Shown: in pieces, positions 8,975-39,488 of the stretch
Layout of the letters: each line of letters opens with the position of its first letter
Position numbering within the stretch: the first letter of the stretch is position 1
NCBI GenBank assembly: GCA_024641335.1
Contig: JAHEDG010000001.1
Span: forward strand, 46,910-110,909
Origin: Candidatus Zixiibacteriota bacterium
Lineage (GTDB): Bacteria; Zixibacteria; MSB-5A5; UBA10806
Reading direction: 5' to 3'
Length of the DNA stretch: 64,000 nucleotides
The notes under the pieces: model-generated
Told to the model about the DNA's origin: nothing
Database searches by the model: none
The model's input: the letters and a program-made list of their open reading frames with translations, nothing else
Translations under genes and position numbers: made by a program

Positions 8975-9798
8975 AAAGAGAGTATATCGATCTGCATGTT
9001 CATACCAACGCCTCCGACGGTATTTTCACTCCGGCCGAGGTGATTCAACGGGCCATAGAAAAAAATCTGCGGGCTTTGGCTATTACCGATCATGATACTA
9101 TCGACGGCTATGTCGAGGCCGCGAAGTGCGCGGAGGATGACGAATTGGAGGTCATTCCGGGTGTCGAGCTTTCCTGCCACTATAACGGTTCCGATGTTCA
9201 TATTCTCGGCTATTATATCGATTACGAGGTTCCGGAGTTCGTCAAGAAGATCCTCAAGTTCAGGAATGAGAGGTATGAACGGGGAGAATCCATGGTGGAC
9301 AGACTGAATGAACTGGGCATTAATCTTTCTATGGAGACGGTACGTACTATCGCCGGCAAGAGCCCGTTGGGACGGCCGCATCTGGCCGACGCTTTATTAA
9401 AAGAGGAATTCGTTCAGACATACGATGAGGCTTTCGCCAGGTATCTGGGATACCACGCTCCGGCGTATGTGCCTAAGAAAGTACTGACTCCCGAGCATGG
9501 TATCGATCTGATTCATTTGACCAGGGGGGTGGCTATACTGGCTCATCCCGGAACGTTGAAACATGACGAATATATACCGGACCTGGTGGAGATGGGTCTC
9601 GACGGTATCGAGGCGTATCATTCGCAGCACGGTAAAAGCGATCAAATGCGATATAAGAATATGGCCAAAAAATACGGAGTCATATATACAGGCGGCTCCG
9701 ATTGCCACGGACCTCGCAAAGGAAAAGTATTGATGGGCAACCAGCGGGTTCCCTATAAGGTCCTGGAGGATTTGAAGCGGATCAAGGAGAGTAAATAG
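8971..9798 (+). CDS. PHP-domain phosphoesterase (TrpH/YciV-like)
   Basis: 'IDLHVHTNASDG...ALAITDHDT' PHP motif I/II. 275 aa. Confidence 0.8.
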   Translation: MKREYIDLHVHTNASDGIFTPAEVIQRAIEKNLRALAITDHDTIDGYVEAAKCAEDDELEVIPGVELSCHYNGSDVHILGYYIDYEVPEFVKKILKFRNERYERGESMVDRLNELGINLSMETVRTIAGKSPLGRPHLADALLKEEFVQTYDEAFARYLGYHAPAYVPKKVLTPEHGIDLIHLTRGVAILAHPGTLKHDEYIPDLVEMGLDGIEAYHSQHGKSDQMRYKNMAKKYGVIYTGGSDCHGPRKGKVLMGNQRVPYKVLEDLKRIKESK

Positions 9799-11651
9799 TG
9801 CGAAAACTGGTTTTGCCGATTATCCTGACGCTATTGGCGGCAGGAAACGTCCCGGCTGATAATCAATCCGAATCGGTTTTATTTTTACGGGAGCAGATGG
9901 CGATATTAAAGGGGAACGCGCCCGAAATACCGTCCCCCACAGGAACTAATGTTCGATTATGCGGGACGCCTATAACCGTGGCCGGATATTCATTGAGAAA
10001 GCAGGGTGTTCCGCTTCCGGCTGACGCTATGGTTTTGCGTCCGACATTTCTACCGGATACTCTCGGCGGTGAACATATTCTGGTTCATTACGTTTCCAGC
10101 GGCGCCCATGCGCCGTATGAAGTTTCGGTCGACACTCTTCCGGCGGATGGGGCGCCCGATTATATCAACCGTGTTCTGGAGATATTCGAGCATTGCTGGG
10201 ATTTTGAAACCGGGCCGGTATCGCTGAATTATCTCGGATTCAATGCTCCGCCATCGGATGCCGGGTTGGGAGGCGACAACAGGTATGATGTATATGTCAT
10301 GGCCTTGGACCCCGGTTTTTTCGGATTCACCAGCCCGGACGATGACACTACCGGATATCAGGTTTCCAGTTTTATAACGCTCGAAAACGATTTCGCGGGC
10401 ACCGGGTATCAGAATAATCCGCTGGATGCCGCTAAGGTAACCGCCGCCCATGAATTTTTCCACGCTATTCAGTTCGGGTATGACGCTTTAGAATTTGATT
10501 TCGACGATCCCGGTATCCCGGCCACATATAAACCCTGGTGGCTGGAGGCATCGGCTACCTGGATGGAAGACCAGGTATATGATGATATAAACGACTATAT
10601 CAACTACCTTCCTTTTTTCTACGGTTATCCCTGGATGGGGCTGGGTTCTTTCTCTTATAGCTACGGCAATCCCAGGGCTTATCACCCCTACGCTTCGTGT
10701 GTCTGGCCTATTTATCTTACCGAGAAGTACGGCTCGGGCATAGTGAAGGAAATATGGCAGGGATGCGCGTCCGTTCCGGGATATAATACTTTACTCGTGA
10801 CCGAAGGCCTGTTGCAGAGCCGCGGATCATCATTGTCCGAAGCTTATCTCGAGTTCTCTGTCTGGAACTATCATACCGGCCAGCGTGCCGATACCTCGGT
10901 TTATTTCAGCGAAGGGGCATTATTCCCCGATTCCATAAATATAACCGGTTTTATCGGCGATCTGACATCGACTCCCGTATTATTCGGAGGTCTTCCCAAT
11001 CCTCCGGAGCATTTGGGAGCGAATTATATCGTAATTCGGGCGGGACAAGATATCGGTGGAATAGCGGTCAGATTTGACGGAACCGACGTGGTCAACGCCG
11101 GATGGTTCGCGGCCATTGTCGGATACAGGCAGGGGGACAGCCAATGGCAGGATATGTTCCTTGTTCCCAATACCGGCGACGGGGCCGAGCAATGGCCCGA
11201 CTGGAACCTTTATGATGAGATCGTGATCATCCCGACCGTTTCAGGCTATTTCCCCTTTTACAATTCATATACCTACCACGGCGAAGTCAATTACGATCCG
11301 AGCATCGTGACCAACGGAGGCACTTCGCCGGAATTCAAGATAACCAAAGCTTATCCTTCTCCTTTCGTAATCGGGAGCGGTTCATCGGAGGTCACCATAC
11401 CGTATTCTCTGGACCGGCGATATACCAAAACCGAACTCGGGTTTTTAATATATAATTCCTACGGCGAATTGGTCAGGGAGCTGCCTAAAACGGATATTCC
11501 CTCTACCAGCCCCGGCCCGCACTCAATCGGAATTATCTGGGACGGCAGGAATGATGATGGTCAATACGCGGCCTCGGGGATTTATATCTTATATATGGAA
11601 GGGGACGGGAAATCCACGTCATTCAAAATCGCGGTAGTTAACAACAGGTAA
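9798..11651 (+). CDS. Secreted zinc metallopeptidase (HExxH) with T9SS-type C-terminal sorting domain
   Basis: GTG start with signal peptide. 'AAHEFFHAIQFGY' HExxH motif. The last ~100 aa match the Por/T9SS CTD pattern ('YPSPF...GELV...WDGRNDDG...SGIYI...FKIAVV'). Confidence 0.65.
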   Translation: MRKLVLPIILTLLAAGNVPADNQSESVLFLREQMAILKGNAPEIPSPTGTNVRLCGTPITVAGYSLRKQGVPLPADAMVLRPTFLPDTLGGEHILVHYVSSGAHAPYEVSVDTLPADGAPDYINRVLEIFEHCWDFETGPVSLNYLGFNAPPSDAGLGGDNRYDVYVMALDPGFFGFTSPDDDTTGYQVSSFITLENDFAGTGYQNNPLDAAKVTAAHEFFHAIQFGYDALEFDFDDPGIPATYKPWWLEASATWMEDQVYDDINDYINYLPFFYGYPWMGLGSFSYSYGNPRAYHPYASCVWPIYLTEKYGSGIVKEIWQGCASVPGYNTLLVTEGLLQSRGSSLSEAYLEFSVWNYHTGQRADTSVYFSEGALFPDSINITGFIGDLTSTPVLFGGLPNPPEHLGANYIVIRAGQDIGGIAVRFDGTDVVNAGWFAAIVGYRQGDSQWQDMFLVPNTGDGAEQWPDWNLYDEIVIIPTVSGYFPFYNSYTYHGEVNYDPSIVTNGGTSPEFKITKAYPSPFVIGSGSSEVTIPYSLDRRYTKTELGFLIYNSYGELVRELPKTDIPSTSPGPHSIGIIWDGRNDDGQYAASGIYILYMEGDGKSTSFKIAVVNNR

Positions 11652-11669: not shown

Positions 11670-12212
11670 ATGTCCGGAGTATCCGGTATCGCCAGGATTG
11701 GAGTTTTCGCGGCGTTGGCCTTCGGGTTGAACTCTCCGTTTTTGGCTGTTCCCAACGTGGAGGTTTTCAGCCTGACGATCTTCCTGTCCGGTTTGTTTAT
11801 GGGCAAAGCCAGCGGGACGGCAGTGGCGTTTGTGGCCGGGATTATTTTTGTTTTTTTCAACCCCAACGGTCCGCAGCCGATTCCTCTGGTCGGTTTTGTT
11901 CAGATATTCGGTTTTATGGTATTCGGATTTTCAGGAGGGTTGGCTCGGCCGATCCTATTGAACGTGAATGAAGCTGTTCGGGCGATCTGGCTAATGACTC
12001 TTTTGGGAATCGTTTTGACCCTGTGTTATGATCTTTTGACCAATCTGGCTTTCGCCTATCTCTTCGGACCTTTCTGGCCGGCGTTAATCGGAGGACTTGG
12101 GTTTAGCCTGGTGCATATAATCTGCAACGCCGTAATTTTTGGGCTGACTGGAGCAGTCGTTAACAGAATTTGGAAAAGAATAGAATTCGTAATGCCGCCG
12201 CTGGCGGGCTGA
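11670..12212 (+). CDS. Small polytopic membrane protein (ECF-transporter S-component-like)
   Basis: About 5-6 predicted TM helices and no soluble domain. Function not assignable. Confidence 0.4.
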   Translation: MSGVSGIARIGVFAALAFGLNSPFLAVPNVEVFSLTIFLSGLFMGKASGTAVAFVAGIIFVFFNPNGPQPIPLVGFVQIFGFMVFGFSGGLARPILLNVNEAVRAIWLMTLLGIVLTLCYDLLTNLAFAYLFGPFWPALIGGLGFSLVHIICNAVIFGLTGAVVNRIWKRIEFVMPPLAG

Positions 12213-25330: not shown

Positions 25331-27013
25331 TTGATGAAGTCAGCCAGATTTGCTATAATATTTTTTATCGTGACGGCCCTTGCCTGCGGCAGGGCGGTGA
25401 AAAAAGAAACCGGTCCCGATTCGGGCGAAAAGGACGCATATTCGTCATACCGGGCTTATGATCATTTTGTCAAGGGAGACCTCTACGAACAGTCGGGGAA
25501 TCTCGACGGCGCCGTGGACGAATATCGCAAAGCGTTGATCTACGACCCGTTTTCGGCCGAAATCAGGCGGACATTGTCGGATGTTTATTTCAATCAGAGG
25601 AAATTCAGCGAAGCGGCGGTGCTTCGCTCGGAGATAAAACAAAAAACAGTTGACGATTATAATTTCATAGGGGATTGCCTGCATTTCAGCCGGGATTTCA
25701 GAGGGGCTCTCGATTTTTACAAGAGATCTCTGGAAATGGACCCCAGACAGTATCTTCCCAGAAAATACTCGGCCGGGCTTTATCAGTATCTGGGCGATAT
25801 GGATGAGGCCGAAAAGCAATATAAAGTCGCCGTGGAACACGCGCCGGATAAGCAGGAAGCCTGGCTCGATCTGGGTACTTTTTATCTCAGGCAGTCCGAT
25901 GACGATCGGGCGTTGGGCGCTTTCGAGGAAGCCTTGAAAGAAGATTCCAGCGATGTTCGCACTATTCTGGAAATCGCTTCCATCAGAATGAACGCCGGGG
26001 ATACGACCCTGGCGGACAGTATGTATATCGATCTGGCCGAGAAAAACTGGGATAATCCGGCTATGCTTCAGTCTATGGTGCCGTTGTTTTTCTCCGTAAA
26101 CGATGACCAGACGGCCCGCAGAATCGGGGCCCGCGTTCTGGAGCTCGAGCCCGGCAATCCCGATGTTCAAAGACAATACGCTTATATCCTTTTCAGCAGC
26201 CAGAAATTTGTCCAGGCCGAATCTCTGATGATCGTGTTGGACCAGAATGGTCATGCCGATTCGGATATCTATTACTATCTGGCCAGAATCAGGCAGTATA
26301 ATGATGATTATCCGGCGGCCGAGGGGTATTTCAATAAGGCGCTGGCTCTCAACGATACCTTGTCGGACGCCTGGATCGGTCTGGCTATGAGCGTCGATTT
26401 GCAGGGTAGATATCAGGAAGCTCTTGTCTTAATGAAGAACGCCCTGGATAAAATCCCGGGGGACTCGACAGTCATTATGTTTTACACTGCTGTTGTACAT
26501 TCCAATAACGAGCGGTTCGAGCTGGCCCGCGACGGATATATCCGCCTGTTGAACTCCAATCCGGATAATATTCAATTCAAATTCAATTTGGGTGCCTCTT
26601 ACGAAAGGCTGGGGCAGTTTGATGACGCGGAAAGAGAATTCAAACAGATTATAAAGAAAACGCCCGATAATCCGCTGGCTTTGAATTATCTCGGATATAT
26701 GTACGCTGATAAGGGGATAAAACTCAATGAGGCCTTAGCGATGATTGAAAAGGCCATATCTTTAGATCCGGACAACGGCGCTTTCCTTGACAGCTATGCC
26801 TGGGCGTTGTATAAACTGAAAAGGTATGATGAGGCTATTGTGCAGATGAACAAGGCGTTGGAGATAGACGATAGCGACGCTATTCTATTCGATCATCAGG
26901 GGGATATCTACGCCGCCTTGAATCAACCGGACAAAGCAAGGGAGAGCTGGGGCAAAGCGCTCGAGCTCGATCCCGATAACCAGGAAATTATCTCGAAATT
27001 GAAACTTAGGTGA
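25331..27013 (+). CDS. TPR-repeat lipoprotein
   Basis: Lipobox 'ALACG'. Multiple 34-aa TPR-like repeats ('AWLDLGTFYLRQSDDDRALGAFEEALK' and similar). Confidence 0.8.
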   Translation: MMKSARFAIIFFIVTALACGRAVKKETGPDSGEKDAYSSYRAYDHFVKGDLYEQSGNLDGAVDEYRKALIYDPFSAEIRRTLSDVYFNQRKFSEAAVLRSEIKQKTVDDYNFIGDCLHFSRDFRGALDFYKRSLEMDPRQYLPRKYSAGLYQYLGDMDEAEKQYKVAVEHAPDKQEAWLDLGTFYLRQSDDDRALGAFEEALKEDSSDVRTILEIASIRMNAGDTTLADSMYIDLAEKNWDNPAMLQSMVPLFFSVNDDQTARRIGARVLELEPGNPDVQRQYAYILFSSQKFVQAESLMIVLDQNGHADSDIYYYLARIRQYNDDYPAAEGYFNKALALNDTLSDAWIGLAMSVDLQGRYQEALVLMKNALDKIPGDSTVIMFYTAVVHSNNERFELARDGYIRLLNSNPDNIQFKFNLGASYERLGQFDDAEREFKQIIKKTPDNPLALNYLGYMYADKGIKLNEALAMIEKAISLDPDNGAFLDSYAWALYKLKRYDEAIVQMNKALEIDDSDAILFDHQGDIYAALNQPDKARESWGKALELDPDNQEIISKLKLR

Positions 27014-28704
27014 GAAGAACCGGTCTCGTTTTTTATTTAGTTTGCTTATCGCTTTCGGTTATTTTGACCTGCGCGGTAAATGATTCTCCGTCGGGAGGAC
27101 CAGCTGATACAACGCCCCCTACGGTAGTCAATGTAGAACCGGAACCCGGCAGCACCGGCATATCCGCCGATATCGTATTCTCCATAGAGTTTTCGAAACC
27201 GATGAGACCTGACGCGGTAGAGAATTCTATTTTCCTTTCCCCTGTTTTCTGGGATTACCCCGAATTCAAATGGTCGGGAAGAAAACTGACCATCAAGCCC
27301 CCGGAAAAACTTAAGGAAAATACCACCTATGTGCTGACTGTCGGTGCGGGCGCCACCGATACCCGCCGTAACAAGATGGGCAAATCGTATAGTTTCCCGT
27401 TTTCCACCGGCGCTATGATCGACAGCGGATCGGTCTGGGGAGGGATATTCTCTCTGGAAAGCAATCGAACATCATACGATATCTGGGCATACAGAATAGA
27501 CAGTTCGACAATCTCCGGTTTTATGGCCCTGATACCCGATTATGGAACACAGGTCGATTCCGCAGGAGGTTTTTCCATCCAGAATATGGCGGCCGGAGAT
27601 TATATCGTGGTGGCTGTCGACGACAAGAATGATGACCTGTTCTGCGATCCATCGTCCGAATCAATGGCCTTGCCGCCGGGGATTGTCTCTGTCGCCGGAA
27701 GCGCCCGGATCGACGGAATAATCTTAAGGCCCGAACGACGGGATACGATTCCGGCTTTTTTCTCCAGGGTGGAACCGCTCAACGACCGGCTTTTGTCAGT
27801 AGAATTTTCTCAGCCGGTAGATGACAGGATGGAATTGGATACCGTGTCTTACTATATTCAGGCTTCCGATTCGTCGGGGTTGGCGATCATGGGAGCTTAT
27901 CTGTCTGAAAGCGGACGTTTGAATATCGAGACCGATTATCAGTCCGCGGAGAGATCTTATCGGCTCAAGCCGAACGGTCTAATCTCCGAATGGGGTGTGC
28001 GGTTCGATACGTCGGGAGGCAGCTTCAAGGGCAATCCCAAGCCCGATTCAGCCGGTCCGAAATTAATATCCACTTTTCCTCCCGGCGGTTCGCGATCTGT
28101 TTACCAGGATACTGTTGTGGAACTGACCTTCTCCGAAAGGATCAATCCCCGCGGTTTTGCCGAATCGGTGTCCATGGTTTCGGATTCTCTGGATACTCTG
28201 CCGTTTATTCCGAAATGGACATCTCCCAATAAAGCGGCTCTATTAGTACCTGGCGGGATTCCCAGGGAGAAGAAAATAGAAGTTCGATTGCGGCCCGAGA
28301 AAATCTTCGATACGGTCGGCAACCGTATGGAAGACAGTGTAGTTACTTTCTCTTTCAAGCTGGCTCCTGTCGATACGGTCGGCTCGGTTTTAGCCAGGAT
28401 AAAATCGATCGGTCGATATCCCGTGATTGGCGAGCTAAAATCGCTTCGTCGGGGAGGGGAAACATATCAGGCCTCCGCTAATTCCGCCGGCCTGGTTCGA
28501 TTCCAAACAGTTATGCCGGGATCTTACAAATTTTATTTCTATGAAGATAAAGACCTTAACGGTAAATGGAGTCCTGGGTCGGTTACTCCTTTCCGGCCGG
28601 CGGATCGTTTTTCATTTCTGCCCGATTCCATTATTGTCAGATCCAGATGGGATACTGAAATAGGTGAAGTGGATTTACCTGTTGTCAACAGCGAAAAATA
28701 TTGA
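27010..28704 (+). CDS. Secreted protein with SbsA-type Ig-like domains
   Basis: Signal peptide. 'PPTVVNVEPEPGSTGISADIVFSIEFSKPM' and 'PKLISTFPPGGSRSVYQDTVVELTFSERI' bacterial Ig-like (Big_5) motifs. Confidence 0.55.
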   Translation: MRRTGLVFYLVCLSLSVILTCAVNDSPSGGPADTTPPTVVNVEPEPGSTGISADIVFSIEFSKPMRPDAVENSIFLSPVFWDYPEFKWSGRKLTIKPPEKLKENTTYVLTVGAGATDTRRNKMGKSYSFPFSTGAMIDSGSVWGGIFSLESNRTSYDIWAYRIDSSTISGFMALIPDYGTQVDSAGGFSIQNMAAGDYIVVAVDDKNDDLFCDPSSESMALPPGIVSVAGSARIDGIILRPERRDTIPAFFSRVEPLNDRLLSVEFSQPVDDRMELDTVSYYIQASDSSGLAIMGAYLSESGRLNIETDYQSAERSYRLKPNGLISEWGVRFDTSGGSFKGNPKPDSAGPKLISTFPPGGSRSVYQDTVVELTFSERINPRGFAESVSMVSDSLDTLPFIPKWTSPNKAALLVPGGIPREKKIEVRLRPEKIFDTVGNRMEDSVVTFSFKLAPVDTVGSVLARIKSIGRYPVIGELKSLRRGGETYQASANSAGLVRFQTVMPGSYKFYFYEDKDLNGKWSPGSVTPFRPADRFSFLPDSIIVRSRWDTEIGEVDLPVVNSEKY

Positions 28705-28734: not shown

Positions 28735-31700
28735 ATGCTTCGAAATCTGGTTCGTAAATCGGTCCTGATGGTGGCGTTTTTCTGTGTATTTTGCATAATT
28801 TTTACCGGATTAACAGCCGCCGAATCGAAATCAGTTCATAAGGTTCTGTTTTCTCCTGATAGACCTGTGACCGGATCGTTGCGTATCGAATTCCCGGATA
28901 ACCGGTTAAAACCGTTGTTTGCCTATGCGGCAACTGCCGACGGTCGTTTTCCGGCATCGGCTCCGGTTGTCACCGCCGACGCCATAAACCTGGAATTACC
29001 ATCGGATCGAGGGGCAGTCACAGGCGTAGTTATCCTGGCCGAAAGCGGTTTGCCGGATCCCGATTTTTCGCGCTTGAGAATATTGTCGGGCGGCCGTGCT
29101 CTTAAGGGGTTTTTTAGTTGGTACGATGGTCTGTCGCTGGACGTTTTGAACAGTGTCACTGATAGTCTGGCCCTGGCGGAAGTCGGAGCCTCTGATACTC
29201 ATAAGATAGGATTCACTACTTCATCGCTGGCCTTGAGCGACTCGGCTATAATCTGGGTTACTTTCCCCGGCGGTTTCGATATCTCGGCCATCGGTACGGC
29301 GATCTATTCCGACAATGACCCGGCTAATAACGGCAATGAACCGCAGGTGGCCTCATGGGATAGCGTCGGGCAGACGGTTAAGTTTTTCCTGAATTCCGGA
29401 GCTCAACCGGCTGTGGTCGGTTCGAGAATATCGGTGGTATTTTCGCCGGTGACCAACGATACGGCAGCCGGCAGTTTCACAGTTGTAGCGCTGACCACCG
29501 ACTCTCTTGGCAATATTGAGAACGGCCCCGATGTTTCGGCGCCCTTTAACCTGAACCCGTCAGCTCTGGATCATATTGCCATTTCTCCATCGGCTCCGAT
29601 AAGTATTCCGGCCGATTCATCGGTTCTCTTCGATGTCAGCGGGGCGGATATATACAACAATATTATCGATACGCTGACATTCGCCTACGCCCTGACTGTC
29701 GATTCCTGCGGACAGGTTTCAGACGGGATTTTCACCGCTATCAAAGTGGGGGCCTGCTACCTGACAGCGTCAACAGGCGGCATTACCGATTCATCCGGCT
29801 TGATCACGGTCGTACCGGGGCAGATAGGCAGGTTCGGATTGAGCGGATATCCGGAATCGAGAACGGCCGGCGTCGGTTTTATCAATCCGATCAATGTTAA
29901 GGTATATGACGTTCGCGAGAATATTAAGACCGATTATCTGGGAGAAATGTGGTTTACCAGCTCCGATACTCTGGCCACTCTGCCTTATAATTCGGTTTCG
30001 CGCTACACGTTTACCGTGGGTGACCAGGGGCAGCATAATTTCGCGGGTTCCGGTTTTACTTTGAGAACCGCCGGGAATATGTATATCATGGCTACGAACG
30101 GCCCGGTTACCGATTCCACCGCCTTTATCAGGGTAAACTCGGCGGTGATAGACACTTTTCTCTTCAGTGTCGTAGCATCACAAACCGCCGGATATAGTTT
30201 CAATCTGCAGGTTGTTTCGGCCTATGATCAGTTTAATAATCCGGCATCCGGCCAGGTGATAGTCTCGTTCTCCGGCGGAACAGGCGGGAATTCCCCCGAC
30301 GGCATACCTCCGTCGCTGAATAATATCAATGTTACTTCGGGCAACGGTTCCGCCTTGCAAACCCTGACCAACGCTGTCCCGACTATTCTCGAAGGTTCGG
30401 TTTCCGGAGCGATGAGTATCGGCGATACTATTTTGGTGGCGCCGGGCAATCTGGGACGATTTACATTGGACGGTTATCCCGATTCCACTACCGCGGGAAA
30501 TGTTTTTCCGAATCCCGGAATCGATGCTACGGTCTTTGATATTTTCGGCAATCTCAAAACGAATTTCCTCGATTCGGTTTATTTCGAAAGCTCCGACACG
30601 CTGGCTGTAGTGCCGTATACCGGTTCAGGCAACTCGAAATATAAATTCGTTTCGGCCGATTCCGGTTCGCATATATTTCCCGGAGCTGGATTTATATTAA
30701 AGACATCCAATGAGCAGGATATAAGCATTACCAACGGAACAATCGCGGACACATCCAACAATATCATGGTCTGGCCGGGGCCGATCAATTCATTCATTCT
30801 CTTCGCTCCGATACCGCCGGTAACCGCGGGAACACCATTTCAGGTTACGGTTAACAATTGCCGAGATCAATGGGCTAATCCGACCGGAGGCACGGTTACC
30901 GTGACCGACAGCGTCGGGGGAGGATCATCTCCCAACGGCACGCCTCCGATATTCAATTCCATTCGGGTTGTCAGCGGCGCCGGCAGCGCGTATCAGACGC
31001 TGGTCAATATGGTCACGACGGTTTTATCCGGGGCGTCCGGTTCCATAGTGAGAGTAACCGACAGCGTATACGTCCTGCCGGGATCGTCTCTGGGGGTACT
31101 CGATCTGAATATTACCACTCCTCAAGTCAACGCCACTCCGTTTACCGGCACGGCTGATCTTACAGCTTATGATACCTATGGCAATTTGAAGACCAATTTC
31201 GACGCTTCGTCCGATAATATTACTATCTCCTCATCCGCCGGAGGGGTCATGCAGAACAATCTTTTTGATCAGGCGGGGGATTTTGTCGGCGGCGTAGTCG
31301 ATCTGGTTGCCCGGGGAACTTCATTCAATGGACGAGGAGGGGTGATGACCTTCTCGGCTGCCTCCAATTCAGGGGTAATCGGGATTTCCGACCCGGTGGA
31401 TATGCGGGCTATCTCCTGCGACAGCCTGCTGATTAACGAAGCTATCGTATCCTGGGGCGATACCGCTACCGGTATTGCCTGGGTTACCAACGACGGCGGA
31501 GCGCCGGTTGATATCACCGATATAGATGTATACACCGAATCGGGGACCACGCTCAATCCCGTATCCATAACTCCCGCGCTGCCTCACACGCTCGGTCCCG
31601 GCCTGGATAACGCCTATAATATCGCAATAGAGATTCCGATCGGTTTTACTCCCGGCATATATCCATTAACTGCCGCTGTCGCCGGGGCGTTCGGCATATA

Positions 31701-34683
31701 TCCTGTTTATGACACATTAAGCGGATTCGCCGATACCCTGGAAATCCAGCAGGCGTCGAATATAGGGTATGTCGCCGGATCACTCAACCGCGATACTCTC
31801 TCGACCGGGGAATGGTACTCCTTATCATTTAGAATCAGCAATACCGGCGATGCCGGGTTCGGAGTTCTGGATAGTTCCTTTATATATTTTACCGATACCG
31901 TCCGGGAATTTATGGCCCCGATATCCAGCGGAGTTTATGTTCCTCCGAATACTCCTTCGGGGATCCTGGCTGTTATGGATTCCGCTCTGGTCGATCCTTT
32001 ATTTGGCGAGGGGATTTACCAGGCTCAATTCATTTATTACGGCCGGGAGAACGGTCATTTTATATCCGGCTCGTTCCCGCTCAACGATTCGATCAGAATT
32101 CAGGCAAGCGCGGATATTTCTTATATAACCGGCTCTCTGAATATCGCTTCCCTGGTTCCGGGACAAAACGCTTTGTTTTCCATCCGGGTTCATAACTCCG
32201 GAGCGGCTTCGTTTATTGTGGATCATCAGAACACCAGGTTTTATTTTACCGATTCGGTCAGGGATTATATCGCCTATGCCGATACATCGTCGGGCAACAG
32301 GGTCGATATGATTACCTCTGATACCACCATACATTTTGCCCAGGCGGTGCTGCATTCGCAGTTTTCCTCGGGGATATATCAGCCCGGCATAAATCTGCGA
32401 GGGACCCAGAACGGAATATATAAGAATTTAACCCTTAATTCCTCGCCAGATTCCGTTTTGGTATCTTCCCGCGGGACATTAAGAATCGACACGACTTACA
32501 TAATGACCCGCAACGCTCCCTTCGCCAATATATCCCAACCTTGTTCATTGCTGGTCAGTGTTTCCAACGGCGGGGAGGAGGGAATAGATAATTTCGCCAT
32601 TAATCTTTTTACCGACGGCGGTTCCACAGTTCCCGCGCCGTTTACCGTCGCCCATCTCAACGGTCTGAGCTCGATCGATACGATATTTCAGATCACCTCC
32701 GGGGCGGCGCCTGATTCGAGCGAGATATTCTCAAGCTCCATATCCGGCGGGTCAGGAGAGATTATCGGACTTCCGCCGCCGATCCTTCCGCCGCTCGATA
32801 ATTACGCCCTGCTGGTTATAGAGACACCGGCAGAGCTGGCTCTTTCGCCCATAGATATTGTCTCGCCTCCGGAAGCGATGGACGACACGGTTACTATCGG
32901 GCAGAACCTTATCATTTCGGCTTCGGCAGCCAATCTCGGACAGGCCGATATTACGGGGGTTCAAAGTCTCACTCTCGATCCGGGATCGACAGGGTTCATC
33001 ATTAACGGGCCGGCGTCCCAGACTTTTATTCTCGATCAGGATCTGTTCTGGAATATAACCGCGCCCCCAAACCCGGTCAGCCTGGCCGTATTGACCATAC
33101 GTTTTACGTCATTTCCATTCGATCGCAACGACGGTTCCTCGTCGGTGGGAGCGGATTCGGTTTCCACTCGAACTTTCGAAATTGATACCAGCCCCGCGAT
33201 CAGTCAGAGTCCGGCCGTCACCGCCCCGGCCGGGGCAGTCGACCGGTTAATCTCTACCGATCAGACATTTGCCCTGACTGATACACTTGACCCGCTCGGT
33301 ATCTATTCCGGTCTTTCGGCGCTTATCGAGCTTCCCGCCGGTTTTACCACGCAAGATTCGCTTTTAAAACATCCTTCCGGGAATATTGTTCGCTGGACTT
33401 TAAGAGCTCCGTCAGTTCCGATGGATGATTCTGTGGCTGTGCACAGCTGGCTTTTCGATACCAATACCGGCGATTCAGTCGGGACAGCGGTCGATTATAT
33501 CGTCTTATCGACGGTACGGCGGGCCGATCTGAATATATCATCGAGGATAGCCGGTCCGCAGGCGGCGTTGGACGGCATCCTCGAACCGTCCTCGGAGCTG
33601 TTGTTCTCGGCCAGGGTAGATAATAACGGTACGGCCGCGGCAGGTACAGGCCGATTGCTTTTACATTTAGGCAGCCCCGATATGATCTCTCAGGAGCCGC
33701 TGGTCAGGGATTTCACCCCAGGCGTACCGGTACAATGGACCATTACGGTTCCGGATACCGAAAGCGTGGTTCCGATACCGATCTGGGCCACCATAGATTC
33801 CATACCTGATGACGTGAACAGTAATCTGCCGTCATTCGTATCCAATGATCTTTCCGGTGTCACTGTGACAGTGAAGGAGCTGCTGCCTCAAATGGCTGTT
33901 ATCCCCCGCGCGGCCTATTCGGGATCGGTGGTCAAAGGGCAGGAGTTGGTTTTTCTTTCATTCGCCATACGTGACAGGGACAGGGGAGGTTCCTATTCAG
34001 TGGGAGTGCTCGAATTAAGTTTCGGTTTACATTCCAGCCCGGTGGCGGATATTTACAGTCTTTTCTCCAGCGCGTCTCTAAGCTGGGATGCATCGTTCGT
34101 GGAAGCCGCGACCGGAACACCCGGGTTGATGAGTTTTGTTTTCCCGGATACCATTGTTCTGGGGCCGGGAGAGACCATAGAATTCGATCTTAATATCACA
34201 ATTTCCGACAGCGCCCCGGCCGTGGACTTTTCGCTGGCTCTGGATGGGGAGGATATCTTAGGGGTTGCTTTCGATAACGGCATCCCCACAGCCGGATTGA
34301 TCGGCGTCTCCTCAACCGGAGACCCATTGCTCTGGGAAGGGAATCCCACGGTTATTCTCGATGCCGATTTCTCCTCTTCGGTATCCAGCTATCCCAATCC
34401 GTTTAATCCCGATAACGAGGCGGCCAAAATAGGATATTACCTGGCGGCCGCTTCTGATCTTGAAATTAGAATATTCACCCTGCTCGGCGAACTGGTATGG
34501 ACGAAGAGTATCGGCAAAAGCGACGCTCTTGGCGGAGCGGGTCTGCATACCGGGGATTCGGCATTATTATGGTACGGCAAGAACGATTCCGGATATGAGA
34601 TTAATTCCGGAGTTTATATCTGCATAATAAAAAATATTACTACCGGCGAGGAGGAGAGATTCAAAATCGCGGTCGTAAAATAA
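28735..34683 (+). CDS. Giant (1982 aa) cell-surface protein with repeated Ig-like modules and T9SS-type C-terminal sorting domain
   Basis: Signal peptide. About three repeated modules 'G(Y)P(E/D)S(R/T)TAG...V(Y/F)D(V/I)..N.KT(D/N)(Y/F)L...(F/W)..SSDTLA..PY'. C-terminal 'SYPNPFNP...GELVW...WYGKNDSG...SGVYICII...FKIAVVK' matches the Por secretion tail. Confidence 0.75.
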   Translation: MLRNLVRKSVLMVAFFCVFCIIFTGLTAAESKSVHKVLFSPDRPVTGSLRIEFPDNRLKPLFAYAATADGRFPASAPVVTADAINLELPSDRGAVTGVVILAESGLPDPDFSRLRILSGGRALKGFFSWYDGLSLDVLNSVTDSLALAEVGASDTHKIGFTTSSLALSDSAIIWVTFPGGFDISAIGTAIYSDNDPANNGNEPQVASWDSVGQTVKFFLNSGAQPAVVGSRISVVFSPVTNDTAAGSFTVVALTTDSLGNIENGPDVSAPFNLNPSALDHIAISPSAPISIPADSSVLFDVSGADIYNNIIDTLTFAYALTVDSCGQVSDGIFTAIKVGACYLTASTGGITDSSGLITVVPGQIGRFGLSGYPESRTAGVGFINPINVKVYDVRENIKTDYLGEMWFTSSDTLATLPYNSVSRYTFTVGDQGQHNFAGSGFTLRTAGNMYIMATNGPVTDSTAFIRVNSAVIDTFLFSVVASQTAGYSFNLQVVSAYDQFNNPASGQVIVSFSGGTGGNSPDGIPPSLNNINVTSGNGSALQTLTNAVPTILEGSVSGAMSIGDTILVAPGNLGRFTLDGYPDSTTAGNVFPNPGIDATVFDIFGNLKTNFLDSVYFESSDTLAVVPYTGSGNSKYKFVSADSGSHIFPGAGFILKTSNEQDISITNGTIADTSNNIMVWPGPINSFILFAPIPPVTAGTPFQVTVNNCRDQWANPTGGTVTVTDSVGGGSSPNGTPPIFNSIRVVSGAGSAYQTLVNMVTTVLSGASGSIVRVTDSVYVLPGSSLGVLDLNITTPQVNATPFTGTADLTAYDTYGNLKTNFDASSDNITISSSAGGVMQNNLFDQAGDFVGGVVDLVARGTSFNGRGGVMTFSAASNSGVIGISDPVDMRAISCDSLLINEAIVSWGDTATGIAWVTNDGGAPVDITDIDVYTESGTTLNPVSITPALPHTLGPGLDNAYNIAIEIPIGFTPGIYPLTAAVAGAFGIYPVYDTLSGFADTLEIQQASNIGYVAGSLNRDTLSTGEWYSLSFRISNTGDAGFGVLDSSFIYFTDTVREFMAPISSGVYVPPNTPSGILAVMDSALVDPLFGEGIYQAQFIYYGRENGHFISGSFPLNDSIRIQASADISYITGSLNIASLVPGQNALFSIRVHNSGAASFIVDHQNTRFYFTDSVRDYIAYADTSSGNRVDMITSDTTIHFAQAVLHSQFSSGIYQPGINLRGTQNGIYKNLTLNSSPDSVLVSSRGTLRIDTTYIMTRNAPFANISQPCSLLVSVSNGGEEGIDNFAINLFTDGGSTVPAPFTVAHLNGLSSIDTIFQITSGAAPDSSEIFSSSISGGSGEIIGLPPPILPPLDNYALLVIETPAELALSPIDIVSPPEAMDDTVTIGQNLIISASAANLGQADITGVQSLTLDPGSTGFIINGPASQTFILDQDLFWNITAPPNPVSLAVLTIRFTSFPFDRNDGSSSVGADSVSTRTFEIDTSPAISQSPAVTAPAGAVDRLISTDQTFALTDTLDPLGIYSGLSALIELPAGFTTQDSLLKHPSGNIVRWTLRAPSVPMDDSVAVHSWLFDTNTGDSVGTAVDYIVLSTVRRADLNISSRIAGPQAALDGILEPSSELLFSARVDNNGTAAAGTGRLLLHLGSPDMISQEPLVRDFTPGVPVQWTITVPDTESVVPIPIWATIDSIPDDVNSNLPSFVSNDLSGVTVTVKELLPQMAVIPRAAYSGSVVKGQELVFLSFAIRDRDRGGSYSVGVLELSFGLHSSPVADIYSLFSSASLSWDASFVEAATGTPGLMSFVFPDTIVLGPGETIEFDLNITISDSAPAVDFSLALDGEDILGVAFDNGIPTAGLIGVSSTGDPLLWEGNPTVILDADFSSSVSSYPNPFNPDNEAAKIGYYLAAASDLEIRIFTLLGELVWTKSIGKSDALGGAGLHTGDSALLWYGKNDSGYEINSGVYICIIKNITTGEEERFKIAVVK

Positions 34684-34787
34684 TACCGGCTGCCTTTCTC
34701 CTGGCGGCCGCGGTATTTTCCACAGTCCATTCACAGGGGGATTCGGGCCGGGAATCGCCGTTCTCCTTAGGCGCCGGGGCCAGAGGT

Positions 34788-36515
34788 ATGGGCATGGGGC
34801 ATGCCTATGTTTCCCTGTCGGGCGACGCTTCCGCGCCGTTCTGGAATTCGGCCGCTATCGCCGGAATCGACAGGCCGGAGTTTATGGCTTTCCGAACTAC
34901 CCTGTTTTTGGAAACTAATTACGATTGCCTCGGTTTTTCATATCCTATGGAAAATATCGGCGTTTTTTCGCTCTCCCTGGGGAGAATAGGCGCGGATAAT
35001 ATTCCCCGCAGGGATCAATTCAACAGGCTGATAGATACCTTCTCATCATCCGAGACACAGCTGGGTTTGAGCTATGCCCGCGATATCATTTATGGACTTA
35101 ACGGAGGGATTACAATCAAGGCTGTCTCCAAGGATATCGGCGGCGCGGCGGGAGCCGGGACCGGAGCCGATCTGGGGTTCCAGTTTTCCCCTCCATTCGC
35201 GGAATATATCACCCTGGGGATGGGGTTCAATGATCTGATTCGGCCGGGGATAAAATTGTTGTCGGCCCAGGATAAATACGCCACAGTCTCTCGTTTCGGT
35301 ATAGCTTCATCCAATAAAGTCGGCGATAAATTCCAATTCACCGAAAGCCTGGAGCTTAATTCGTCGGCAGGACGCAAAACCAGGTTTATGATCGGGGCGG
35401 AGATGGCTTATACCGGACAATATTTCCTCCGGGCCGGTTATAATTATGAGCGGATCACATTTGGCGCGGGAATTATTTACAGATTCATTAAACTCGATTA
35501 TGCGTTCGAGAATTACGAATTCCTCGGCGCCAGCCATAAAATATCATTCGGTGTGTCGTTCGGAAAATCAGTCGGTTTGAGCAGGGAAGCTCGTCTGGCC
35601 GGAATGGTGGAAAAGGAAAGAAAGAAGTGGGAGGCGAATCTGGCCGGCAGGCAATCGTTGGCGGCGGATTCGATAGTGATTGTTGCGGATAGTCTTTTAG
35701 TTAACGGGCAATATCAGGAGGCTCTATTCAACTATGAGAAATCCCTGGCCCTGGACAGCGGTTCAGAAAAAGCTCGAGTTATGGTCGACAGCGTAATGAA
35801 CCTGATCATTTTCAATTCTATCAGGAATGTCTCTGACAAGAAGCGCGAAGAGCTTATCGCCGGCCGGGTGCAATCGGCCCTCAATGATCAGAAAGCGGGT
35901 CTTTTCAACGACGCTATTCTGAAATACAATCTTCTAATCGAGATCGATCCCGGCAATAAAGCTCTTACCGATCTTCTGAAAGCGGCCCGTAACGCCCGGA
36001 CAGCGGAAATCACCAGACGAAGAGAACAGGCCCGGACCCGTCAGGAACAAGGCGATCTGACCGGAGCGCTGGCCGAATGGAATCAGGTATTATCGCTCGA
36101 CAGAAACGATGCTATGGCTCGGTCTCAATCCGAGATAGTTTTAAAACAGATGAGAGCCAACGATCTGGTGGCCGCGGCTGTGGCCAGTGTGAATGAGGGT
36201 AATTTCGAACGAGCCGCCGACTATCTTAGCCGGGCGCAGGAATTGAAGCCGGATGACAGATCCATAAGGAACCTGCTTATAGATACCCGTTCGAAATCGG
36301 TTCCCCCGACATCGTTGGAGGATATAAAAGCCAATTCGGAGCATTGGTCGATTTATATCTCGGCGTTGGAAAGTTACCAGGCCAGCGATTATAACAAAGC
36401 GATCGAGACCTGGGAAAGGCTCAGAGATTTCTATCCCAATAATCCCGATCTTGAGAAAAATATCAGCCAGGCCAGGCAACGGTTATCCGCTCAAGGCGGA
36501 AACTCCCGAGATTAA
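34788..36515 (+). CDS. PorV/LptO-like outer-membrane beta-barrel fused to C-terminal TPR-like helical domain (true start probably upstream, non-canonical)
   Basis: 'GMGHAYVSLSGDASAPFWNSAAIAG' resembles the N-terminal motif of PorV/UPF0164-type OMPs. The beta-barrel half ends at 'LDYAFENYEFLGASHKISFGVSFG'. A second half of about 300 aa has TPR-like helical repeats. An in-frame signal peptide lies upstream with no ATG/GTG/TTG (see findings). Confidence 0.5.
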   Translation: MGMGHAYVSLSGDASAPFWNSAAIAGIDRPEFMAFRTTLFLETNYDCLGFSYPMENIGVFSLSLGRIGADNIPRRDQFNRLIDTFSSSETQLGLSYARDIIYGLNGGITIKAVSKDIGGAAGAGTGADLGFQFSPPFAEYITLGMGFNDLIRPGIKLLSAQDKYATVSRFGIASSNKVGDKFQFTESLELNSSAGRKTRFMIGAEMAYTGQYFLRAGYNYERITFGAGIIYRFIKLDYAFENYEFLGASHKISFGVSFGKSVGLSREARLAGMVEKERKKWEANLAGRQSLAADSIVIVADSLLVNGQYQEALFNYEKSLALDSGSEKARVMVDSVMNLIIFNSIRNVSDKKREELIAGRVQSALNDQKAGLFNDAILKYNLLIEIDPGNKALTDLLKAARNARTAEITRRREQARTRQEQGDLTGALAEWNQVLSLDRNDAMARSQSEIVLKQMRANDLVAAAVASVNEGNFERAADYLSRAQELKPDDRSIRNLLIDTRSKSVPPTSLEDIKANSEHWSIYISALESYQASDYNKAIETWERLRDFYPNNPDLEKNISQARQRLSAQGGNSRD

Positions 36516-36602
36516 ACTTTACATGCTCCCGGCTTATTCCTAATATTAACGGCGGAGGTTTATTGTAGAAGTATGGCCAGAAAGCCGATAAAAGAGGTTT
36601 TC

Positions 36603-39488
36603 ATGAGCTTTCCCGCAGACGAGGGACAGCTCGAGGATATCCGAAGCAGCATACGCAATGTCCTGACGGAATCCGATCTTTCCAGCAAGGATATCAACGG
36701 CGTACTCCTTGCTATTGAGGAAGTCTGTACCAATGTCATCAGGCACGCTTATCTCTATGGCCCCGGAACTATCAGGATAAAAGTAAAACTGTACCATGGG
36801 CGGGTCTCTTTCTCCATATTCGATAAAGGCCGCAAATTCGATTACGATCATTCCGAAACCCCTGATCTGAACCGCTATATCAAAACCGGCCGCAAAGGCG
36901 GCCTGGGGTTATATCTGATCCGCAAGATGATGGATTCTGTGGAGTATTATTCCCGCGATGGCGAAAACGAACTGCGTATGGAAAAACAGGCCGACAAACA
37001 ACCGTCGAGAACTATCAGGGCTCCGGGCGTTTCCATCAGGGTGAAATTTTCTCTATGGGCGTCGCTGGTCGTCTTCGCCATCGTTACCAGCGTATTTATC
37101 TACATAGATAAGAGAACCGCCGAAGGAGCCACGGCCAGATTCTTCAAAGGCGCCTCCGATGTCATGGATTCATTTGTTTCCGATATCGGCGATAAGATCA
37201 TCTTCAAGGATGTAGATCTCTCCAAATCTGCCGAAGCCTGGCTGAAAGCCAATGAAAGTTTCACTTACCTGGTAGTAACCGATACTTCCGCGACTATAAT
37301 CGCCGATCCTAATAATCCCCGGAAGTTTCTCTCCAGATATGAGCCTATCCCCGAAAGCTACTATAACAACGACATAGCGGTTCAGGATTCATCGGGTATA
37401 AAAGCGTTCCATTACAAGAACACGGTGAAGCTCAACAACAATATCGTCGGATACGCCTATTTCGGAATTCTGGAATCTCCTCTGTTGGTGGAAATCGCCA
37501 ACGCCCGGCGGGGGTTATTTATAATCGCCATATTCGGTTTGATTGCCGGTTTCGTGGCGGTCTTCATGCTATCCAATTATTTTGTGAAACCGATTCAGAA
37601 GCTTACCGAAGGGGTGCTGAGAATAGGCGACGGCAATCTCGACCAGACCCTGCCGGTGGAGGGCGCCGATGAGTTTGCCGAGATAGCTATGGCATTCAAT
37701 GAGATTACCAACAAGTTCAAAAAATCGCAGGTAAACCTGGTCGAACAGGAACGTCTGCAAAAGGAAATGCAGGTGGCCCAGGAAATCCAGCATGCCCTTT
37801 TGCCTCGCAAATTTCCGGATGTCGAAGGGTACGATATCTCCACTATCTACCGGGCGGCCAAGGACGTGGGCGGAGATTATTTCGATTTCGTCAGGATCGA
37901 CGAGCATTCCATGGGGATAATCGTGGCCGACGTTTCCGGTAAAGGTGTTCCCGGGTCTCTGGTTATGACCATGATTCGAACGGCCCTGCGTTTGGAGTCG
38001 AGAGAAAACTATTCTCCCACATCCATCCTGAGCAAGGTTAACAAGTTCGTGGCCGACGATGTCAAGAAGGGAATGTTCATTACCATTTTCTTTATCACTC
38101 TGGATTCCCGAAAACGAACTATCTCTTACGCTTCCGCTGGTCATAATCCCATGATTCTATTCAGGAAAGATACCAATTCCTGCTATTTCCTCAATACCCG
38201 CGGAATGCCGCTGGGGATAAGCCTGCCGGACGATATCGCCTTTGAGGATTCTCTCCAGCATGACAGTGTCAAGCTGAAGAAAGACGATATGCTGGTGATC
38301 TACACCGATGGTATTACCGAGGCGATGAATAATTCCGGTCAGCAGTACGGCAACGACCGTCTGATCGAATTCATAAAAGCCAATTCCGAACTTCATCCTG
38401 AAGAGTTCACCAAAAAATTAGATGCCGATATCAACCGGTTTACTGCCGGAGCGCCGCAAAACGATGATATCACCCTGGTTGTGATTAAGGAAAAGATCAT
38501 GCTCGACGAGATAGTTTTCCAGCAGAGAAAACGTTTGATCGAGATGGTCGAATATGAGGGTATTTCAGCCGAGGATGCCTGCAAGGAGGCCGGGGTTTCC
38601 ATTTCGACCTATTATAAATACCGCCGCCGCTGGCAGAGGCTGGGTGACGCGGGATTACTGGATAAGAAGCTCAGGGCCGATTCCGGCATGAAGCAGATTC
38701 CCTATGAGGCTCGCAAGGAGATCCTCAATATAGTCAGAACTCACCCGGAATTCGGGGCCAAGAGAATAATCGATGAGGCTCGGAAAAACGGGATAGCTGA
38801 TCTGGATATGCGCGGTTTAAGCGAAGAGCTGACTCGCATGAGACTCAACACCAAAAAACTCCGTCTGGAATATGTGGAGAGAATGGGAGCTATGTCTCCC
38901 GATATGAGAGCGGAACTCGATAAGGAGATACTCAAGGATAAGGAGAAGAAAGAGCAGATCGACCGCGACGCCTATCTCGAGCAGATCAAGAAAAGCATCA
39001 GCGATAAGGCCCTGGAGGTTCCGCAGGGCTCCGATGAGGAACTCGAAAAGCTCAAGAGCCTGGAAACTGCTTTAGGAGATACGGGACTGTACAGCGATAT
39101 AGCCTCCGAACTGGGCAAACTCGGAGGAGGAAAAGATATCGCCGGTCTTTTCGAAAAGATGATACTGAAAATGGCCGAAGCTAAAGTGGATGAGGCTGAA
39201 ACCAGGGGAAATCCGGCCGAAGAAACAAATGATCAGGCGGCCGATCTGAACGTCTCAGAGTCGAAGGATAGCTTCCCGTCTCCTGAAGAGCCGAAAGAAA
39301 CAGGCGATTCCGAAGACAATGCCGGAAAACAGCCCGAGTTGGCGCCACAAACCCTGCCGGAATCGGACGCCACGCCTATCGACGTGGTCGACGCTGCTTC
39401 AGAGAATGACAATGCCGGCGAAGAAGAAGAACAGTTGGATTGGGACAATTACAGCAAAAAGCTTCAGGAAAAATTCGATAAAAAATGA
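36603..39488 (+). CDS. Multidomain membrane signalling protein: RsbW-like anti-sigma Ser/Thr kinase (HATPase) + TM + periplasmic sensor + TM + HAMP + PP2C/SpoIIE phosphatase + transposase-like HTH + acidic tail
   Basis: N-terminal 'LLAIEEVCTNVIRHAY...GGLGLYLIRKMMD' (HATPase_c_2). Two TM segments flank a ~130-aa loop. HAMP 'IQKLTEGVLRIGDGNLDQTL'. PP2C 'GGDYFDFVRIDEHSMGIIVADVSGKGVPGSLVMT...DMLVIYTDGITEA'. HTH 'GISAEDACKEAGVSISTYYKYRRRWQRLGDAGLLDKK...HPEFGAKRIIDE'. Start at 36603 (AAAGAGG RBS) is preferred over the track start 36573. Confidence 0.7.
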   Translation: MSFPADEGQLEDIRSSIRNVLTESDLSSKDINGVLLAIEEVCTNVIRHAYLYGPGTIRIKVKLYHGRVSFSIFDKGRKFDYDHSETPDLNRYIKTGRKGGLGLYLIRKMMDSVEYYSRDGENELRMEKQADKQPSRTIRAPGVSIRVKFSLWASLVVFAIVTSVFIYIDKRTAEGATARFFKGASDVMDSFVSDIGDKIIFKDVDLSKSAEAWLKANESFTYLVVTDTSATIIADPNNPRKFLSRYEPIPESYYNNDIAVQDSSGIKAFHYKNTVKLNNNIVGYAYFGILESPLLVEIANARRGLFIIAIFGLIAGFVAVFMLSNYFVKPIQKLTEGVLRIGDGNLDQTLPVEGADEFAEIAMAFNEITNKFKKSQVNLVEQERLQKEMQVAQEIQHALLPRKFPDVEGYDISTIYRAAKDVGGDYFDFVRIDEHSMGIIVADVSGKGVPGSLVMTMIRTALRLESRENYSPTSILSKVNKFVADDVKKGMFITIFFITLDSRKRTISYASAGHNPMILFRKDTNSCYFLNTRGMPLGISLPDDIAFEDSLQHDSVKLKKDDMLVIYTDGITEAMNNSGQQYGNDRLIEFIKANSELHPEEFTKKLDADINRFTAGAPQNDDITLVVIKEKIMLDEIVFQQRKRLIEMVEYEGISAEDACKEAGVSISTYYKYRRRWQRLGDAGLLDKKLRADSGMKQIPYEARKEILNIVRTHPEFGAKRIIDEARKNGIADLDMRGLSEELTRMRLNTKKLRLEYVERMGAMSPDMRAELDKEILKDKEKKEQIDRDAYLEQIKKSISDKALEVPQGSDEELEKLKSLETALGDTGLYSDIASELGKLGGGKDIAGLFEKMILKMAEAKVDEAETRGNPAEETNDQAADLNVSESKDSFPSPEEPKETGDSEDNAGKQPELAPQTLPESDATPIDVVDAASENDNAGEEEEQLDWDNYSKKLQEKFDKK

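Follow-up and report, generated by a model that had tools for sequence, protein, structure and literature searches.

A conserved AUU codon inside the end of the preceding gene as the probable start of a PorV-like outer-membrane protein gene in Zixibacteria

Where does translation of a gene begin if its reading frame encodes a signal peptide that no canonical start codon precedes? This question is raised by a stretch of 64,000 nucleotides from Candidatus Zixiibacteriota bacterium (assembly GCA_024641335.1, contig JAHEDG010000001.1, positions 46,910 to 110,909 of the forward strand; hereafter, the window), in which a gene for a PorV-like outer-membrane protein (OMP) with a C-terminal tetratricopeptide repeat (TPR) domain directly follows a giant gene of 1982 codons. 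As called, the PorV-like open reading frame (ORF) runs from an ATG at 34788 to 36515 and encodes 575 residues beginning with MGMGHAY. Its frame stays open in the 5' direction as far as a TAA at 34602-34604, and a codon scan found no ATG, GTG or TTG among the 61 intervening codons (34605-34787), as had been stated in an initial annotation of this DNA. That annotation had also noticed an in-frame signal peptide upstream of the called ATG, which is borne out by the sequence, the ORF list and the translations, and it had offered three explanations for the missing start: initiation at an ATT codon, an error of assembly or sequencing, or pseudogenisation of the start. The first of them is now strongly supported by an invariant ATT and Shine-Dalgarno (SD) sequence, a conserved signal-peptide frame and frozen synonymous sites. 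On this comparative evidence, the PorV/PorQ-family gene very probably starts at AUU 34659, placed by the motif AGGAGG, and yields a Sec signal peptide predicted to be cleaved after VHS.

The ATT lies within the last codons of the upstream ORF, whose C-terminus reads ...GEEERFKIAVVK before its TAA stop (34681-34683), and the final 25 nt of the upstream gene are at the same time the opening 25 nt of the downstream gene, counted from the ATT. It is preceded by the purine run GAGGAGGAGAG (34648-34658), within which AGGAGG provides the best match to the anti-SD sequence at a spacing of 4 nt, confirming the earlier description of an ATT behind a strong SD inside the end of the 1982-aa gene. Translation from this codon gives (M)QNRGRKIIPAAFLLAAAVFSTVHS|QGDSGRESPF; the cleavage site, previously read as AxS-Q, is corrected to VHS|Q, with Val at -3 and Ser at -1. 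The genome does make use of SD sequences, with a 5-mer SD in 25 of 63 long ORFs as compared to a background of 2.8%. The combination GGAGG-N4-ATT occurs four times in the window, against 4.1 occurrences expected by chance. Within the window alone, an SD followed by ATT is thus not statistically remarkable, and its significance comes entirely from the comparison of orthologues. The gene infC, sought as an internal positive control for the use of AUU, is absent from the window.

For this comparison, GTDB species genomes and JGI metagenomes were scanned with peptide patterns blind to the start codon, complemented by look-ups of exact proteins. The resulting sample comprises 27 orthologous loci from Zixibacteria with 24 distinct junctions, whose proteins are 44-89% identical (median 51%). 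Judged by its homologues, the window belongs to Candidatus Zixiibacteriota. An ATT aligned to window position 34659 is present in all 24 junctions. Each of them also contains an SD of 5-6 nt located 4-5 nt from the ATT, which takes the form of AGGAGG at 4 nt before the ATT in 21 junctions and of GGAGG or AGGAG in the remaining three. The upstream gene invariably ends with ...SGVYICxIKNxxxGEE(E/A/K)(K/R)(F/L)KIA(V/I)(V/I)K and a stop codon, with the 25-nt overlap kept throughout. No canonical in-frame codon is found between the upstream stop and the ATT in 19 of the 24 loci, and in ten there is none from that stop through the signal-peptide cleavage site. In three loci (L007, L047, L048), a stop codon is located in frame only three codons 5' of the ATT, separated from it by GGA GGA GAA/ACG, which makes the ATT the first conceivable start. 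An ATG or TTG 13 codons upstream, chosen as the start in three JGI calls (P0031, P0032, P0042; loci L049, L050, L057), was considered as a candidate and rejected as not conserved: it stems from the Tyr-Ile-Cys codons of the upstream protein's C-terminal domain (CTD), lacks an SD in two of the three loci, with a weak GGAG only in L050, and is stop-blocked in other orthologues.

As the ATT and its SD lie within codons of the upstream gene, conservation of amino acids could mimic conservation of a start, an ambiguity that synonymous sites resolve. Third-position entropy in the upstream frame amounts to 0.65-1.96 bits at positions -78 to -12, but is exactly 0 at -9 and -6, the third positions of GAG GAG, as well as at position 0, where the A of ATT lies. 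Codon usage was compared with a background of 14,794 codons taken from these upstream genes. The two Glu codons that make up the SD are GAG in 44 of 44 cases, against 47% in the background, and the K/R codon ends in A in 24 of 24 (background AAA 65% for Lys, AGA plus CGA 33% for Arg). The Phe codon is TTC in 20 of 20 cases (background 54%); with TTT, the PorV frame would read ATT-TAA and stop. The Val codon in penultimate position is GTA, which yields Lys7 of the signal peptide, in 21 of 22 cases (background 21%), the lone GTG being found in L043, a locus with its own downstream ATG. Among the 12 invariant two-fold-degenerate columns in the last 230 codons, synonymous variation is zero only at the SD Glu codons. 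The freezing of these synonymous sites shows that, throughout the orthologue clade, selection acts on the SD, on the A of ATT and on the downstream frame of codons 2-7 independently of the upstream protein.

The peptide encoded downstream of the ATT has the features of a Sec substrate. A heuristic scan for n-, h- and c-regions over the 24 orthologues identified the pattern typical of cleavage by signal peptidase I (SPase I), with a positively charged n-region, a hydrophobic h-region 10-15 residues long and small amino acids at -3 and -1. Counted from the ATT, the signal peptide is 25 residues long in 21 of 24 loci; it contains 1-4 K/R within residues 1-10 and a core with a Kyte-Doolittle value of 2.2-3.2, and the small residue is present at -1 in all orthologues and at -3 in all but one. 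K/R residues are missing after codon 8 in the loci that have only the ATT, whereas ATG-started relatives always carry K/R right after their ATG. In an AlphaFold2 model of the protein, residues 4-22 form a low-confidence helix. Cleavage after VHS would leave the mature N-terminus QGDSGRESPF, with (pyro)QGDSGRESPFSLGAGAR as the predicted semi-tryptic peptide. The dual-coded n-region (34662-34679 and its equivalents in the orthologues) is unusually rich in Cys in many cases (QNCCRK, QNRCCK, QNRSCK), and synonymous Ile/Val changes in the upstream frame switch Arg residues of the signal peptide to Cys or Ser.

The start has been placed in various ways in the databases. About 20 of 49 close homologues from the protein database are given a start at MGMG/MGR (569-575 aa), which is also the call for P0001 and many orthologues. 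Most others are called inside the hydrophobic core (e.g., MAQGD..., MQSASYADGD... or LWSSIAFSEGD...), and three reach back to an ATG further upstream and include the peptide ...HRRGGKIQNR..., the same as ...YRRGGEIQNR... in the window. This family-wide pattern of calls, together with the shared upstream peptide, points to a conserved feature of the DNA rather than a local defect. The N-terminus is doubtful in every database entry examined for the PorV-like/TPR orthologues, except for a few lineages with an in-frame ATG of their own; the doubtful entries start at MGMG, inside the signal peptide or at a non-conserved upstream ATG, and they include calls by the NCBI annotation pipeline PGAP on complete chromosomes of metagenome-assembled genomes (MAGs). 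The initial annotation had considered that orthologues might start at MGMG and possess a signal peptide elsewhere. None of them has a separate signal peptide after MGMG, and the MGMG starts in the databases represent the same miscall.

The designation of the protein as PorV-like holds at the family level, with a score of 105.3 bits (cut-off 90) for residues 37-301 against the NCBIfam PorV/PorQ family model NF033709. It does not hold at the level of equivalogs, as the cut-offs of the PorV, PorQ and PorV2 models (NF033710, NF033711, NF052325) were missed, with 32.2 versus 250, 47.2 versus 220 and 64.4 versus 325 bits, respectively. The PorQ and PorV-family profiles align into the N-terminal extension, the PorQ model from residue 13 onwards, and a conserved sequence matching the family, GD(A/S)GRESPFSLGAGARG, is located 5' of the annotated ATG. 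AlphaFold2 modelling of the extended protein (mean predicted local distance difference test score 83.6) returned an N-terminal helix, a beta-barrel spanning residues 74-300 and a helical TPR domain. When compared with the PDB using Foldseek, this model retrieved the two PorV structures 8gl6_F and 6h3i_F as top matches (template modelling score 0.63-0.64, normalised to the target), followed by FadL. Modelling and structural search together indicate a FadL-like beta-barrel fold that resembles the solved PorV structures. The likeness to PorV of the type IX secretion system (T9SS) of F. johnsoniae (PDB 6H3I/8GL6, chain F) thus lies in the family model and the best structural match, whereas the C-terminal TPR domain of ~310 residues is missing from PorV and the equivalog models failed.

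The present gene directly follows a gene for a protein with a CTD-like tail, and its role in a T9SS is putative. The label of the giant gene as T9SS cargo, used in the initial annotation, has to be softened: its C-terminal module resembles a sorting domain but scores just below threshold against TIGR04183 (22.3 bits versus a cut-off of 23, E ~1e-4). The module can be aligned with the C-terminal ends of the models for PorZ and PorU (E 1e-3 to 4e-6), and the Pfam families CHU_C, FlgD_ig and Por_Secre_tail are all sub-threshold (PF18962, 18.3 versus 27). A second module similar to this CTD lies elsewhere in the window, at positions 11349-11642, where it forms the end of ORF 9798..11651 (32% identical over 104 aa, with a tblastn E-value of 3e-6); the next ORF, 11670..12212, starts with an ATG behind GAGGA.

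Among more distant PorV-like homologues (23-37% identity), all 29 that were examined possess an ATG and encode the entire signal peptide. In 14 paralogues that were inspected closely, the stop codon of a CTD-like gene upstream either shares bases with this ATG or directly adjoins it (ATGA or TAA-ATG), at a position equivalent to codon 8 of the ATT clade; the corresponding Glu codons read GAA, and Thr, Leu or Arg occupies the F/L position of the CTD. Codon 8 itself is ATA in 14, GTA in eight and ATG in two loci of the ATT clade, and it does not constitute a conserved start, because its identity follows the choice of the upstream stop codon (TAA, TAG or TGA). In a neighbour-joining tree, the ATT clade is monophyletic, with L043 and L046 nested inside; both of these loci have acquired insertions that provide a new ATG and a new n-region with K/R (MNAKFR... 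and MR...). These sequence relationships fit a scenario in which an ancestral ATGA start was replaced by an upstream SD and AUU start, with occasional later gains of a downstream ATG and never a change from ATT to ATG in place. In Zixibacteria and their relatives, PorV-like genes are also found directly after genes whose products end in a CTD-like strand, ...K(I/V)AV(V/L)(K/R) before the stop, joined to them via ATGA or TAA-ATG, an arrangement that suggests a general module of a cargo gene and a dedicated PorV-like gene.

How might the AUU be used? According to our model, the strong SD, formed by two Glu codons of the upstream gene and separated by a 4-nt spacer, would set the 30S subunit on the AUU, which the initiator tRNA would then read as fMet. 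The product would carry a 25-residue Sec/SPase I signal peptide, whose basic n-region QNRGRK comes from the 25 nt that, in another frame, also provide the codons for FKIAVVK and the stop of the giant gene. By analogy with infC, pcnB and EbpA, the AUU probably limits or conditions synthesis of the protein, and ribosomes terminating on the giant gene 22 nt downstream may contribute to initiation through translational coupling. It is tempting to speculate that the AUU, being intrinsically weak and sensitive to initiation factor 3, serves as a dosage or coupling device, such that most of the OMP is synthesised by ribosomes that the strong SD recaptures right after they have completed the giant CTD cargo gene, although we consider this specific scenario possible rather than likely. 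If true, it would tie the output of the OMP partner to the translation of its cargo, and the arrangement would be locked by triple dual-coding, with the SD specifying Glu-Glu, the AUU Lys/Arg-Phe and the n-region the last CTD strand. It is plausible but not compelling that the AUU has been kept partly since any NTG would change the overlapped Phe/Leu to Cys, Trp or a stop, because paralogous CTDs tolerate Thr, Leu or Arg at this position. For the same reason, the idea that the ATT is locked purely by the overlapped CTD residue is weakened, and the F/L in the upstream protein may be a consequence of the ATT rather than its cause.

Several points weigh against initiation at the AUU. The evidence for the start site is comparative and concerns an uncultured organism, and the conservation of the ATT is partly confounded by the amino-acid constraint in the overlapped frame (K/R followed by F/L). 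Initiation at AUU in E. coli was reported to reach ~0.02-3% of the AUG level (10.1101/063800) or about one-sixth to one-eighth of it (PMC3592434), so that output could be very low unless boosted. Moreover, four loci (L005, L049, L050, L057) have a non-conserved canonical codon in frame 13-54 codons 5' of the ATT, L055 has one 30 codons upstream in addition to an ATG at codon 8, and L043, L046 and L055 contain an in-frame ATG 7-9 codons 3' of the ATT. Finally, the 14 loci with ATA at codon 8 would permit reinitiation at that codon. In its full form, this latter explanation posits that ribosomes terminate on the giant gene and reinitiate at codon 8 (ATA 34680-34682, overlapping the upstream TAA), with the ATT and SD kept only as codons for Glu-Glu-Lys/Arg-Phe. 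It can draw on the paralogues, in which the ATG coincides with the upstream stop or directly follows it (ATGA, TAA-ATG), on the ATG at codon 8 of L055 and on the status of ATA as a near-cognate start codon (10.1101/063800). However, codon 8 is GTA, which is not near-cognate, in eight of 24 loci, and no SD lies in range of this codon in general. A signal peptide starting there would lack K/R in every orthologue, unlike those of all ATG-started relatives, and the constancy of GAG-GAG and the A of ATT, the use of TTC and never TTT, and the freezing of GTA/Lys7 would be left unexplained. Initiation at codon 8 therefore appears improbable.

Two further explanations are, in our view, very improbable. 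One of them is a programmed -1 frameshift, which the internal SD would stimulate shortly before the giant gene ends and which would fuse the cargo to the PorV-like protein with no separate initiation. The downstream frame indeed lies at -1 relative to the upstream frame, the SD is conserved, and SD-like sequences stimulate frameshifting in prfB and dnaX. Yet, the aligned junctions share no conserved slippery heptamer of the type X XXY YYZ, and the sequence AGA/AAA/CGA-TTC/TTA-AAA-ATC bars tandem re-pairing in the -1 frame. No conserved RNA structure emerged at the junction, with 0 pairs in the RNAalifold consensus of 21 orthologues and a z-score of -1.7 for the fold of the window sequence alone, nor was there an Rfam match, as a scan of positions 34300-35000 returned only sub-threshold chance matches (c-di-GMP-I-UAU, 21 bits versus 65.9). 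The fusion product would have a truncated CTD and a signal peptide with n-, h- and c-regions 1970 residues inside the protein, a placement without biological sense, and the ATG and n-region that L043 and L046 evolved on their own show that independent initiation is needed. The other explanation holds that the start has been lost, through an assembly or sequencing error or in a decaying pseudogene, or that the true start is at MGMG, without a signal peptide. It agrees with the behaviour of gene callers and with NCBI and JGI annotations, which place the start of many orthologues at MGMG or within the signal peptide. By contrast, the same ATT and SD recur in 24 lineages whose genomes were assembled independently, and another assembly of this sequence matches it without a difference over 3728 bp. 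As far as sequence data allow, this excludes both the assembly or sequencing error and the pseudogenised start contemplated in the initial annotation. In addition, the full-length ORF with its 618-codon architecture is intact and its motifs are conserved, including GDAGRESPFSLGAGARG, which is located 5' of MGMG and matches family profiles. A beta-barrel outer-membrane protein, moreover, needs a signal peptide.

Initiation at AUU is already known and does not represent a new mechanism. It is used by E. coli infC, encoding initiation factor 3 (IF3), and pcnB (10.1101/063800), and the near-cognate starts of infC (AUA), cvfC1 (AUU) and ccpN (AUA) in S. aureus are accompanied by strong or extended SDs (PMC13009471). 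In infC, pcnB, ebpA, cvfC1 and ccpN, translation is attenuated by a conserved AUN start that is combined with an extended SD (PMC4447247, PMC13009471). The locus described here shares with infC, pcnB, cvfC1 and ccpN the conserved AUN start and strong SD, which are read as a means of attenuation or IF3-sensitive control. It differs from them in gene class, as it encodes an outer-membrane PorV-like protein without evident autoregulatory logic, and its start lies 25 nt inside an upstream ORF, which adds a dual-coding constraint and, possibly, coupling. The closest precedent is ebpA of E. faecalis, where the annotated ATG proved wrong and an in-frame ATT further upstream restores the signal peptide of a surface protein; this ATT attenuates expression relative to ATG, as demonstrated by mutagenesis (PMC4447247). 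Both cases thus combine a downstream annotated ATG with an upstream ATT that restores a signal peptide. However, ebpA is backed by mutagenesis, stems from a Gram-positive species and is not reported to start inside an overlap with an upstream gene, whereas the present case is known from sequence comparison, and a deep clade conserves its ATT, SD and n-region, all of which double as coding sequence for the preceding gene's 3' end. Classical coupling via ATGA or TAATG likewise involves same-strand operon pairs with overlapping stop and start codons, and the paralogues use ATGA or TAA-ATG, but such overlaps span 1-4 nt, as opposed to 25 nt, an AUU start and a strong rather than weak SD in the present case. 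What is new here is the depth of conservation, the dual-coded SD, start and n-region 25 nt inside the preceding gene, and the setting in a CTD/PorV-like gene pair.

The features of the locus are compiled in Table 1.

Table 1. Coordinates of the PorV-like/TPR gene, its start site and associated features (window positions, unless loci are given)
Feature	Position	Strand	Basis or remark
Upstream 1982-aa gene, CARDB-containing	28735..34683	+	ORF list, C-terminus translation, CARDB match
T9SS type-A sorting-domain-like (CTD/FlgD-Ig-like) module, C-terminal ~100 aa of upstream gene	34381..34680	+	TIGR04183, PorZ/PorU alignments
Shine-Dalgarno site AGGAGG	34649..34654	+	4-nt spacer to ATT; made of Glu-Glu codons (GAG GAG) of upstream gene
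ATT (AUU), proposed true initiation codon of PorV-like/TPR gene	34659..34661	+	Invariant in 24/24 distinct orthologous junctions
25-nt out-of-frame overlap	34659..34683	+	Upstream frame (R)FKIAVVK-stop; downstream frame signal-peptide n-region M-QNRGRK-I
Signal peptide, 25 codons: MQNRGRK (n-region), IIPAAFLLAAAVF (h-region), STVHS (c-region); predicted cleavage before Q26	34659..34733	+	Heuristic analysis of 24 orthologues
Proposed corrected coding sequence, PorV/PorQ-family OMP with C-terminal TPR domain, 618 codons	34659..36515	+	Translation; NF033709; tblastn matches of orthologues starting at residue 1
PorV-like beta-barrel domain, ~residues 30-301	34746..35561	+	NF033709 residues 37-301; AlphaFold2 strands 74-300; Foldseek
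Annotated ATG of PorV-like gene	34788..34790	+	Internal Met of conserved GAGARGMGMG motif, not start
C-terminal TPR helical domain, ~residues 305-613	35571..36497	+	Pfam TPR families; AlphaFold2 helices 305-613
ATGA/TAA-ATG-joined pairs of CTD-like and PorV-like genes	L014-L022, L024, L027, L030, L031, L035		Junctions ~40 nt before match start

Directly 5' of the giant gene, positions 27010-28704 encode a 564-aa protein with a Big_5 (bacterial Ig-like) domain, and the ATG of the giant gene itself (28735) has no recognisable SD. A search for an internal promoter or terminator between the giant and PorV-like genes yielded weak consensus matches only. A terminator-like, GC-rich hairpin (34687-34710; eight pairs, seven of them G-C) with a weak T-run is located within the signal-peptide coding region just 3' of the upstream stop; it is not conserved, with 0 consensus pairs in the orthologues. 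The gene 3' of the PorV-like gene (36573..39488, 971 aa) encodes an unusual fusion of an RsbW-like HATPase_c_2 domain, a HAMP domain, a SpoIIE/PP2C phosphatase and a transposase-type HTH_23/28/32 domain. It is syntenic with the PorV-like gene in the orthologous loci L043, L044 and L046, where it is followed by a ParA/CbiA-like gene.

Some members of the family stand out from the rest of the sample. Two orthologues (L011, 4001-5605; L012, 4001-5858; protein P0050) are interrupted, with ORFs of 539 and 478 codons from the ATT, as compared to ~615, and tblastn matches that continue past the break; these interruptions may be frameshifts, pseudogenes or assembly indels in the respective MAGs. The PorV-like family is also present in MAGs titled 'uncultured Ignavibacteria/Ignavibacteriales' (L006, L011, L016, L018, L021, L022, L029, L033, L034, L036, L042), of which L006 and L011 contain an orthologue with the identical ATT/SD junction. 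These titles are probably generic or wrong taxonomic labels that originate from bulk binning.

Collectively, our results add a member to a small group, as conserved AUU starts outside infC are rare; the one described here has been retained in at least 24 species-level lineages. The paralogues with ATGA and the two to three lineages that have regained an ATG provide natural controls, which makes this locus a clean case for studying the evolution of start codons inside gene overlaps. A miscalled start also has practical consequences, since it would lead localisation predictors to score an outer-membrane beta-barrel as cytoplasmic. Within the collection of papers searched, nothing links Zixibacteria with type IX secretion, and the present start site was not turned up either. 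The tight pairing of giant CTD-like and PorV-like genes across Zixibacteria suggests the existence of dedicated cargo-partner modules in a phylum without a described T9SS-type secretion system.

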